Source: an uncultured archaeon
GTDB lineage: Archaea; Asgardarchaeota; Thorarchaeia; Thorarchaeales; CAZPUN01
Length of the DNA stretch: 32,000 nt
Assembly (NCBI GenBank): GCA_964589775.1
Contig: CAZPUN010000021.1
Location: 90,001 to 122,000, forward strand
Reading direction: 5' to 3'
The position numbers were made by a program, and so were the translations under genes. Shown piece by piece: positions 667 to 16,682 of this stretch. Numbering within the stretch: the first letter of the stretch is position 1; every line of letters begins with the position of its first letter. Under the pieces are notes generated by a model. That model did no database searches. It was not told the origin of the DNA and saw only the letters and a program-made list of their open reading frames with translations.

Positions 667-1347
667 TTAATGAATGTTCTTTATAATATTTGAAATCTGT
701 TGAAGAATGTCGCTATCCTCTGAAATTTTGAATGCGTTATACGTTTCGGATTCTGCATCGTATAAGTACGTGAAATTTACAATATGTTCTTTCATGATTT
801 TTAATGTATGTGGATCAAGCACTTCATTTACGTCTTTATTGTTCTCATCGGTAATTATGAAAATGAAATCTGAACCCTCGATGATCGATTTATCCTGAAA
901 CGCGTCTTTCATAATTATCCAGAATGTAATTGAAATATTATCATGATTTGGAATAGATGTTAATTCTGCTAATTGAACACTTTTCATTGCTTTATCCGCA
1001 AATGACTTCGGGAATCCTATTTTTTCCAAGAAGAATTTTAATGCTTCATATGATGTTGAAATTAAAATTACCTTTAATCGTATGTCCTCCATATTATATT
1101 CATCTGCAGTGACCTGTTTTTCTTTGATTTCTGGTGGTTCTTGCATATTTAGATACATTCGAATTATTGATTCTATTTTTGCAGTGGATTCTTGAACATC
1201 ATGTTCAGAGAGTATATCAATTATGGAGGATATTATGTTCTTTACCGTTTCTTTGGTTAATTCCTTAGAAAATAGTATGTTCTCTCCTTTAGATAGACTT
1301 ACAAATCCGTTTGAATAATTTAATTCATATCCTTCTTTAAGCTTCAA
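667..1347 (-). CDS. Hypothetical protein: N-terminal domain plus highly degenerate small-GTPase-like fold; probable paralogue of 14881..16578
   Basis: GGAGG precedes TTG at 1347. IRLKVILIS, ITFW and EGSDFIFIITD follow the beta1/beta3/beta4 pattern of Ras-like folds and align almost without gaps to the 14881..16578 product. Confidence 0.6.
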   Translation of the reverse strand: MKLKEGYELNYSNGFVSLSKGENILFSKELTKETVKNIISSIIDILSEHDVQESTAKIESIIRMYLNMQEPPEIKEKQVTADEYNMEDIRLKVILISTSYEALKFFLEKIGFPKSFADKAMKSVQLAELTSIPNHDNISITFWIIMKDAFQDKSIIEGSDFIFIITDENNKDVNEVLDPHTLKIMKEHIVNFTYLYDAESETYNAFKISEDSDILQQISNIIKNIH

Positions 1348-1416
1348 GATATATCCTCCAAACAATATAATAAATAAAAATAACAAATTCATATTTATAA
1401 CTTATTCTGGTCTTGA

Positions 1417-1821
1417 CTAGCTGATTCTTTTGATATATTGTAGCATTAAGACAATAATTATTATCGCAAGAATTAATGTTGAATAGATTAATGACTCATA
1501 GCTAATCGAAAATAGATCAATGAGTACAAACATTCCCGCTTGAGCAAAAACACTAATTAAAAATCCCAAAAACATAGTGAGATATAATTGATATTGTGGG
1601 ACATATCCTTTTGGATATATGCTATCCTCTGGGCGATTCATTGAATTTCGAATTAGTCTCTGTTTATTGTATCTCAAGAATAGAAATGATATTATTAATG
1701 TTGAAAATGCATAAGATATAAATGCGGCAGCATGGTTTATTATATAGAATATTCCGCCTGCTACTACTATTAAAAGAGCCATGAATAAACTGATAGTATT
1801 TAATAGACCCTCATTATTCAT
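1417..1821 (-). CDS. Small membrane protein (about 4 TM), unknown function
   Basis: Four hydrophobic segments; GGTGA upstream of the ATG. Confidence 0.7.
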   Translation of the reverse strand: MNNEGLLNTISLFMALLIVVAGGIFYIINHAAAFISYAFSTLIISFLFLRYNKQRLIRNSMNRPEDSIYPKGYVPQYQLYLTMFLGFLISVFAQAGMFVLIDLFSISYESLIYSTLILAIIIIVLMLQYIKRIS

Positions 1822-14880: not shown

Positions 14881-16578
14881 TTATTTTTTGATTCTTTTTT
14901 CCTTTATAATTTTTAATAATTCTTTAAGTCCATTTTCAATGGACGGCCCTGTAATAATCGAAGTTTCTGTAAATAATGCTGGTAGTCCATTTTCGGCCTC
15001 TCTAGCTTTTGATATCAATTTGATTTTCTCTAATGCTTCGTCCTTTGAAACCGGTGCCTCGCCCATATCCTGATCATTCGCAGTGATAATGCGTAAATCA
15101 ATTTTGTTTCCAACAATAAGAATTGGTGTTTCAGGCCCTAACATTTGATTTATTTCTTTAACCCAATAGTCAATACTCTGATAGCTCCATCGATCTACAA
15201 CTGAATATACGATTATCGCTGCTTCTGCATCTGCATAGAATTTTCCACGTGTAATCTTTATTTTCTTAGCTTCATTCAAAGGCCAAATTTCTGTATCAAA
15301 AGCAACGTCCTTCAATGGAATTTCTTTTGTAAGAATTCTCATTGTGCTTAATGATGTTATTTGTTCTTCTTGTTCGTTGAACCCTATATTTTCAAATAGT
15401 GAACTCATTCCTACGTCATCTTCACCTAATACAACAACTTTAACTTTGTATTTGGGTAGTTCTCTTACAACTAATGTCTCTACTTCTTCTTTTTCTGTGG
15501 TTGGCGTCTCTGTAGGTGCTTCCACTTTGGTTTCTATGGCGGGTGCTTCCACTTTGGTTTCTATGGCGGGTGCTTCCACTTTGGTTTCATTTGATACAAT
15601 TTCGGGTTTAGAGGCTGATTCAGGAGTTATCTGTTTTTCATCACTATCATATTTTGTAGTCATCTGATCAATAATTCTCAATGTGTATGAAACTAGATCT
15701 TCTTCTGTTGTACTTTGTTTAATTGTTTCCTCCATAATTTGCTCTAGGACTTCTTCATCAGTTTTTTCAATTTGGGGTATTATAATTTTTCTTTCATGTG
15801 TAGACTCTTCCACTTTAGTTTCTGTGGTAGGTGCTTCTACTTTAGTTTCTACGGGAGGGCCTTCCACTTTAGTTTCTGTGGTGGGTGCTTCCACTTTGGT
15901 TTCTGTGGTGGGTGCTTCCACTTTGGTTTCTGTGGTGGGTGCTTCCACTTTGGTTTCTATGGCGGGTGCTTCCACTTTGGTTTCTATGGCGGGTGCTTCC
16001 ACTTTGGTTTCTATGGCGGGTGCTTCCACTTTAGTTTCTGTGGCGGGTGCTTCCACTTTAGTTTCTACGGGAGGGACTTCCACTTTGGTTTCTGTGGTGG
16101 GTGTTTTCACTTTAGTTTCTATGGCGGGTGCTTCTACTTTGGTTTCGCTTTTTCTTGTAGGGATCACTTCTTCAATTATGTCACTAATTATTTTTGACTT
16201 ATCAATAATCGGCTTTTTATCTGATTCTGGTATTGGCTTAGAAGTAGGTTCTATCGCTTCTGTTTGAGTTTCCTTAATTTCAGGTTTGATTGGTTCGACG
16301 GACCCCCAGATATCATCTGACTCAGGCTCTGGTTTAATTTCCTCTACTTCTACGAAGATTTTCTTAGCCTTTGGTATTCCAATCTTTAGCATGACTTCTT
16401 CAACTAATGCCGGCGGCAGTATCTTTCCTTTATAATAAAAGAAACGTTCTAGTTCTTTTCGGACTTGATCAAATGACTTTCCTTTTACTGGAATTGTTTT
16501 TATTAATCTGCCTTTATCCTTAATGCGTATTGTTTTTTGCTCCAATGTTATTCCAAATGTTGTTCCTGGGACAATCAA
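14881..16578 (-). CDS. Multidomain protein: N-terminal domain, long acidic Pro/Thr repeat linker, C-terminal Rab-like (pseudo)GTPase
   Basis: G1-like KVVVLGEDDVGMSS, FYADAEAAIIVYSV, G4 PILIVGNKIDL and G5 FTETS; GAGGAG before TTG. Confidence 0.85.
   Translation of the reverse strand: MIVPGTTFGITLEQKTIRIKDKGRLIKTIPVKGKSFDQVRKELERFFYYKGKILPPALVEEVMLKIGIPKAKKIFVEVEEIKPEPESDDIWGSVEPIKPEIKETQTEAIEPTSKPIPESDKKPIIDKSKIISDIIEEVIPTRKSETKVEAPAIETKVKTPTTETKVEVPPVETKVEAPATETKVEAPAIETKVEAPAIETKVEAPAIETKVEAPTTETKVEAPTTETKVEAPTTETKVEGPPVETKVEAPTTETKVEESTHERKIIIPQIEKTDEEVLEQIMEETIKQSTTEEDLVSYTLRIIDQMTTKYDSDEKQITPESASKPEIVSNETKVEAPAIETKVEAPAIETKVEAPTETPTTEKEEVETLVVRELPKYKVKVVVLGEDDVGMSSLFENIGFNEQEEQITSLSTMRILTKEIPLKDVAFDTEIWPLNEAKKIKITRGKFYADAEAAIIVYSVVDRWSYQSIDYWVKEINQMLGPETPILIVGNKIDLRIITANDQDMGEAPVSKDEALEKIKLISKAREAENGLPALFTETSIITGPSIENGLKELLKIIKEKRIKK
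15511..15588 (-). repeat. Second block of the 27-bp coding tandem repeat (about 3 units)
   Basis: Encodes ETKVEAPAI ETKVEAPAI ETKVEAPT. Confidence 0.92.
15808..16146 (-). repeat. 27-bp coding tandem repeat, 12 full units plus one partial (ETKVEAPxx)
   Basis: Plus-strand unit GGTGCTTCCACTTTGGTTTCTATGGCG and variants, head-to-tail with no spacers. Confidence 0.95.
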
Positions 16579-16682
16579 AGTTTTTGTCTCCTCTAAACAC
16601 GAATAATGATATTCATACTCAAAGTAAAATATATATGCTTTTAGTCTTTTAAATCAATCTAATAAATCTTGGCAGTGATACC

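Follow-up and report, generated by a model that had tools for sequence, protein, structure and literature searches.

The window analysed here, a stretch of 32,000 nucleotides from an uncultured archaeon of the Thorarchaeales (assembly GCA_964589775.1, contig CAZPUN010000021.1, positions 90,001 to 122,000 of the forward strand), encodes on its minus strand a small protein, P0001, which, going by its predicted structure, is probably a nucleotide-free pseudoGTPase-fold protein with the layout of a Rab-like protein family. A member of that family, P0002, is encoded in the same window, with 14 kb between the two genes. The first-pass annotation of the window had presented P0001 as a fully degenerate GTPase-fold paralogue of P0002; its fold and layout are supported by the models described below, and the paralogy is plausible but unproven. 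We favour a description of P0001 as a cytoplasmic, fast-evolving, lineage-restricted two-domain protein.

The structure of P0001 was predicted with AlphaFold2 (AF2) from a two-sequence alignment, resulting in a mean predicted local distance difference test score (pLDDT) of 69.8 and a predicted template modelling score (pTM) of 0.47. Coordinates are those of the window, and residue numbers follow the 226-residue form of the protein unless marked otherwise. The gene and its three parts are as follows.

667..1347 (minus strand): P0001 gene, with the coding sequence at 670-1347, the stop codon at 667-669 and a TTG start codon at 1347-1345, from the list of open reading frames (ORFs), the translation and the start of the homologue.
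1141..1347 (minus strand), residues 1-69: N-terminal domain of three beta strands (7-12, 15-20, 23-29) and two helices (32-48, 55-69), isoelectric point (pI) 5.3.
1084..1140 (minus strand), residues 70-88: acidic linker with seven D/E and two K/R in 19 residues, predicted to be disordered (pLDDT below 50 at 70-87).
670..1083 (minus strand), residues 89-226: C-terminal alpha/beta domain with a predicted small-GTPase-like fold without G1, G3 and G4 (AF2, Foldseek, VIA).

The case for a GTPase fold comes from the C-terminal domain, which was modelled with the element order b-a-a-b-b-a-b-a-b-b-a at a pLDDT of mostly 57-80, dropping below 50 at the C-terminal end. A Foldseek search of the PDB returned 48 matches at E<=1e-3, nearly all of them Rab, Ran or Arf proteins, including one to Rab5a (E 2.5e-4, prob 1.00, template modelling (TM) score by target 0.43-0.48). 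Foldseek and VIA, two independent aligners, both placed small GTPases on top and found almost nothing else, covering about 90% of the domain. The model also contains the antiparallel b2-b3 hairpin that separates G domains from the all-parallel Rossmann-like folds. The match to small GTPases that the first-pass annotation anticipated was obtained at the level of the model, in which strands b5 and b6 are, however, joined by a hairpin without helix a4, a departure from Ras topology that speaks against a G domain. Weighing these models, we consider it fairly likely that the C domain of P0001 has a G-domain fold.

The motifs by which such a domain holds its nucleotide are missing. There is no G1 motif (GxxxxGK[ST]) after b1, where P0001 has ISTSYEAL with neither glycine nor lysine, no G3 motif (DxxG) after b3 (FWIIMKDAFQD) and no G4 motif (NKxD) after b5 (FTYLYDAES); the entire C domain contains only two glycines. 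The lack of P-loop glycines and NKxD had been noted in the first-pass annotation and was confirmed by eye, along with that of DxxG. P0001 had no match to the Pfam families Ras, Roc or Arf (PF00071, PF08477, PF00025) at E<=1, compared with a Ras match at 5.9e-18 for P0002. Set against ordinary Rab, Rho and Arf GTPases such as Rab6B (8ij9_A), Rab43 (9ltp_B) and Rab5a (3mjh_A), P0001 lacks G1-G5, is about 27 residues shorter, has a predicted b5-b6 hairpin in place of b5-a4-b6, and would be unable to serve as a switch. A Thor-Rab from the Asgard archaea, for which a structure has been solved, is a normal nucleotide-binding Rab, and the layout of an N-domain followed by a linker is not described there (PMC10933270).

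Sequence conservation could be read from the sole homologue of P0001, the 228-residue P0003, which was found by a word-indexed search of 5.8 billion proteins, is 59% identical and belongs to a cluster of three members. Identity between the two is 62% in the N-domain and lowest in the linker (37%), and the C domain is divided between a b1-b4 half (residues 89-167) at 77% and a remainder at 39%. No other part of the protein is as well conserved as the b1-a1-b2-b3-b4 face. Mapped onto the model, the conserved b1-b4 part would be the face that bears the P-loop and the switches in a GTPase, and the relaxed part would be the guanine-binding half, a division to be expected if a G domain had lost its nucleotide and kept a binding surface.

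The highest-ranking Foldseek match for the whole model raised a different reading, in which P0001 joins an RRE-like peptide-binding domain to a degenerate E1/ThiF-like Rossmann domain and acts as a peptide-modification scaffold, as does McbB of the microcin B17 synthetase. This match, to PDB chain 6gos_1 of the McbBCD complex, had an E-value of 1.3e-4 and extended over 208 columns and both domains, and the same chain, which we take to be McbB, was a weak match of the P0002 N-domain (rank 34, E 1.1). McbB joins an RRE-like element to an E1-like domain. The superposition was nonetheless very poor, with a TM score of 0.18-0.22 and a root-mean-square deviation of 15.6 A, no E1-like or ThiF-like chain ranked among the first 50 VIA matches in either search, and no YcaO, dehydrogenase or precursor-peptide gene lies near P0001. 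The McbB-like reading was set aside owing to the very low TM score, and we regard it as highly improbable.

The second line of evidence for a pseudoGTPase derived from the Rab-like family is the layout of P0001, which recalls that of P0002 and its relatives. The parts of P0002 are as follows.

14881..16578 (minus strand): P0002 gene, encoding 565 residues with a basic N-domain, an acidic repeat linker and a Rab-like domain.
16351-16578 (minus strand): P0002 N-domain, basic, AF2 pLDDT 90.
Between these two domains: P0002 linker of about 300 residues, an acidic repeat.
14884-15453 (minus strand): P0002 Rab-like domain, with a Pfam Ras match of 5.9e-18 at residues 380-558, a degenerate P-loop (GEDDVGMSS) and NKID kept.

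Full-length orthologues of P0002 were found in essentially all of 60 relatives, and the layout of N-domain, acidic linker and Rab-like domain occurs in 60/60 of the relatives searched. In the family alignment, a conserved basic N-domain (pI 10.1) is separated by a variable acidic linker from a Rab-like domain that has an off-consensus P-loop (GEDGVGKES, or GEDDVGMSS in P0002), lacks DxxG and keeps NKxD. The unnamed family that the first-pass annotation proposed from the two proteins of the window is therefore real and larger than was supposed, with tandem paralogues in addition. Paralogue groups in the family number at least three, and G1 is off consensus in all of them. Given that this layout is a multi-paralogue theme in the order, one further and more decayed copy is plausible.

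P0001 resembles the family in its three-part layout, in the acidic linker and, at the level of predicted fold only, in the small-GTPase fold of its C-terminal domain. In the AF2 models of P0001 and P0002, the N-domains are both beta3-alpha2 units whose elements agree in order, in length and in their distance from the start codon, and the N-domain of P0001 was predicted with a pLDDT of 87-91 for residues 1-50, declining to 71 at residue 69. Both N-domains had PDB chain 9axt_By among their best matches, and both P0001 and the family have a tryptophan in strand b3. The two differ in that the family linker spans about 100-300 residues and the P0001 linker only 19, that NKxD is kept in the family and lost in P0001, where helix a4 is also missing from the model, that the N-domain signature of the family (PGTT / DKG / SF / IG.P) is missing from P0001, and that P0001 is confined to one small lineage.

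The direct comparison of P0001 with P0002 yielded a shared hydrophobic pattern in the N-terminal part. The gap-free N-terminal match that had been claimed places Y22..I77 of P0001 (241-residue numbering) against F8..M63 of P0002, and in this register hydrophobic and polar positions agree at 80% of 56 positions, with a correlation (r) of 0.59 that exceeds all 686 other registers of the two proteins (null standard deviation 0.14, maximum 0.42). In a genome-wide ranking of the best windows from 2275 six-frame ORFs, this register ties for second to fourth place. When the averaged pattern of 27 family members was used as the query, the same register was the best for both P0001 (r 0.50) and P0003 (r 0.39); the family-pattern score of P0001 was unexceptional genome-wide, at rank 31 of 2275. 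The claim of similarity did not extend to the residues themselves, for which the register has 2/56 identities and a BLOSUM62 score of -12, i.e., the N-terminal part of P0001 has no residue similarity to P0002.

The gap-free C-terminal alignment fared less well. Its register, K107..D151 (241-residue numbering) against K380..D424 of P0002, is as had been written, and its offset is that of the best overall diagonal between the proteins (score 38, about 2 standard deviations above shuffles). It has 10/45 identities and a BLOSUM score of 28, a score reached somewhere by 50% of shuffles, and its hydrophobic correlation of 0.28, attained by 4% of registers, is not special. The tryptophan said to be shared after this segment (W158 vs W432) is present, but is aligned only when a one-residue gap is introduced.

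Several results weigh against descent from the family, foremost that there is no sequence evidence for homology between P0001 and the P0002 family. BLASTP of P0001 against P0002 found nothing (E 0.63), and hidden Markov models (HMMs) of the family's N-domain (27 sequences) and G-domain (26 sequences), run with all filters off, scored P0001 at -0.6 bits (N-domain) and -1.0 bits (G-domain), equal to 1000 shuffles; P0003, too, scored like shuffles. HHalign comparisons of P0001 and P0003 with a 7-sequence family alignment, a 27-sequence N-domain alignment and an 18-sequence N-domain alignment to which two further paralogue groups had been added gave probabilities of 1.5%, 11% and 16%; the sole match lay elsewhere than in the alignment of the first-pass annotation, and no N-domain was matched to an N-domain. 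Pfam, NCBIfam, the PDB sequences and the ESM Atlas contained nothing usable for P0001; the ESM Atlas had no usable match for P0002 either. The N-domains also differ in charge, with a pI of 5.3 (acidic) in P0001 and of 10.1 (basic) in the family. Not one of the N-domain residues invariant in the family (P4, G5, T6, T7, D21-K22-G23, S35, I66-G67-x-P69) is present in register in P0001, and the beta3-alpha2 unit is simple enough that it could have originated independently.

The HHalign match always comprised the same 14-15 columns, pairing EALKFFLEKIGFPK, in helix a1 of the C domain of P0001, with the conserved L..IGLP end (helix 2) of the family N-domain. In the window the paired segments are 1003-1047 (minus strand; P0001 residues 101-115) and 16366-16410 (minus strand; P0002 residues 57-71), with pairwise E-values of 0.0017-0.033. 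The segment EALKFFLEKIGFPK is invariant in P0003, and LFENIGF is found in the first helix of the G domain of P0002 itself. The match of EALKFFLEKIGFPK to L..IGLPK may be due to chance or to a shared short motif.

A rival reading is that P0001 is an unrelated orphan, young or fast-evolving, whose generic alpha/beta C domain and simple beta3-alpha2 N-domain resemble the Rab-like family through convergence or through the drift of AF2 toward a common fold when given a shallow alignment, in which case it would be neither a pseudoGTPase nor a paralogue. We give this alternative a substantial, though minority, share of the probability. It is opposed by the near-exclusive ranking of small GTPases by two independent aligners, by the G-domain-type b2-b3 hairpin, by the recovery of the same best N-terminal register in P0001 and P0003 at an equal distance from the start codon, and by the fit of the three-part layout to a family that is abundant in the same order. 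True paralogy of P0001 with the Rab-like family is, in our estimation, a little short of an even chance, and the explanation as a whole, a pseudoGTPase derived from the family and acting as a binding module, is about as probable as its negation.

Since the layout of P0001 copies that of the order-wide family, the most economical origin for the gene would be the duplication of a family member in this lineage, after which the copy may have lost the GTP switch and undergone runaway divergence in sequence. With all of its nucleotide-binding motifs lost, the protein would be a nucleotide-free pseudoGTPase incapable of cycling nucleotides. Its most likely role would be that of a constitutive binding module operating through the former P-loop and switch face (b1-a1-b2-b3-b4), and we infer a scaffold or binding function on this basis. 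Its N-domain would probably not bind the ligand of the family's basic N-domain in the same way. The first-pass annotation had further suggested that the two proteins might form a heterodimer; that P0001 is a fully dead archaeal pseudoGTPase from the family that pairs with the partly dead P0002, or with another small GTPase, via the switch face or the N-domain seems unlikely to us, but if true it would be a case of an Asgard pseudoenzyme regulating an active or semi-active paralogue, comparable to eukaryotic pairs of GTPases and pseudoGTPases. Roughly nine small GTPases are encoded in this genome.

The closest functional analogues may be CENP-M and the pG1 and pG2 domains of p190RhoGAP, nucleotide-free pseudoGTPases that act as scaffolds or protein-interaction modules (PMC10211241). 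P0001, by its predicted fold, can be likened to these proteins in having a G-domain fold that has lost all nucleotide motifs and is recognisable by structure only. They differ from it in being eukaryotic, in having no sequence kinship to it, in their partners and domain contexts, and in having an experimentally shown function; neither CENP-M nor p190RhoGAP pG1/pG2 was among its listed fold matches. One reason for studying Asgard archaea is their eukaryote-like small GTPases, and very little is known about catalytically dead ones; a full-text literature search for 'pseudoGTPase' with 'archaea' retrieved general reviews only. If the reading of P0001 as a family-derived pseudoGTPase is confirmed, the route from GTPase to nucleotide-free scaffold taken by CENP-M and p190RhoGAP would run in archaea too, and the family would be one whose sequences can diverge past recognition without loss of the domain layout. 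The immediate value is modest, given that P0001 is an orphan confined to one small lineage and that the case rests on predicted structures, and the protein is best seen as a candidate for structural work.

P0001 is a lineage-restricted orphan, in contrast to P0002 with its order-wide family. A two-sequence profile, run exhaustively with HMMER against 1.84 billion representatives, found no homologue beyond P0003, none of the 86 other genomes of the order had a match to P0001 at E<=0.001, and a search for related loci in genome contigs recovered no P0001 locus. The protein is known from two genomes only and is single-copy in its own, the sole genome from its taxonomic family in the collection searched.

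The P0001 gene is real, as indicated by P0003, which matches it in length and is 59% identical, and by the lack of any other copy in the genome, and it begins at a TTG codon. Two putative signals, both read in the sequence, precede this start.

1354..1359 (minus strand): Shine-Dalgarno-like GGAGGA, 6 nt before the TTG.
1393..1400 (minus strand): TATA-box-like TTATAAAT, about 49 nt before the TTG and abutting the ATG at 1392.

Counted from that first ATG, the minus-strand ORF (667-1392) is 241 residues long. Read from the TTG at 1347, the product has 226 residues and the N-terminus MKLKEGYELNY, to which the N-terminus of P0003 (MKLKEG) is equivalent. A start at the ATG would add a 15-residue hydrophobic N-terminus (MNLLFLFIILFGGYIL), and the protein could then be membrane-anchored or secreted; the reading frame is open from this codon, and the upstream gene on the same strand codes for a small membrane protein. 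All three members of the P0003 cluster, however, are 228 residues long and start at MKLKEG, GGAGGA sits at the TTG while the ATG abuts the TATA-like box, which would argue against its use, and the partner gene P0002 likewise uses GGAG and TTG. We thus consider the ATG start improbable, and the product was taken as 226 residues from 670-1347 on the strength of the P0003 start, the GGAGGA spacing, the abutment of the TATA-like box and the ATG, and the layout of the P0002 start. The TATA-like box suggests that P0001 has its own promoter; a scan for bacterial-type promoters and terminators was uninformative. The start of the P0002 gene (about 16576-16632, minus strand) is laid out similarly, with a TATA-like box, GGAG and TTG, and in both genes the TATA-like box lies about 50 nt and GGAG(G) about 6-10 nt before the TTG.

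The neighbours of P0001 encode an amidohydrolase, a 134-residue membrane protein, a DUF362 Fe-S protein and a FeMo-cofactor-binding-like protein, and give no hint as to its function. The membrane protein (1417-1821, minus strand) is multi-pass, has no Pfam match and is encoded directly upstream of P0001 on the same strand, with 69 nt between its stop codon and the TTG at 1347. Among the relatives, tandem paralogues with the family layout occur at L035:1149-2390 (plus strand) and L035:2514-3761 (plus strand), and also at L036 and L037; in their P-loop, GEDGVG[IV]NS, the lysine is replaced, and they have kept NKTD but lack DxxG. In the other genome with a P0001 homologue, the cluster member P0011 and the P0002 orthologue P0005 are each listed with a longest contig of 82,228 bases, and the two genes are probably on one contig there, as they are here.
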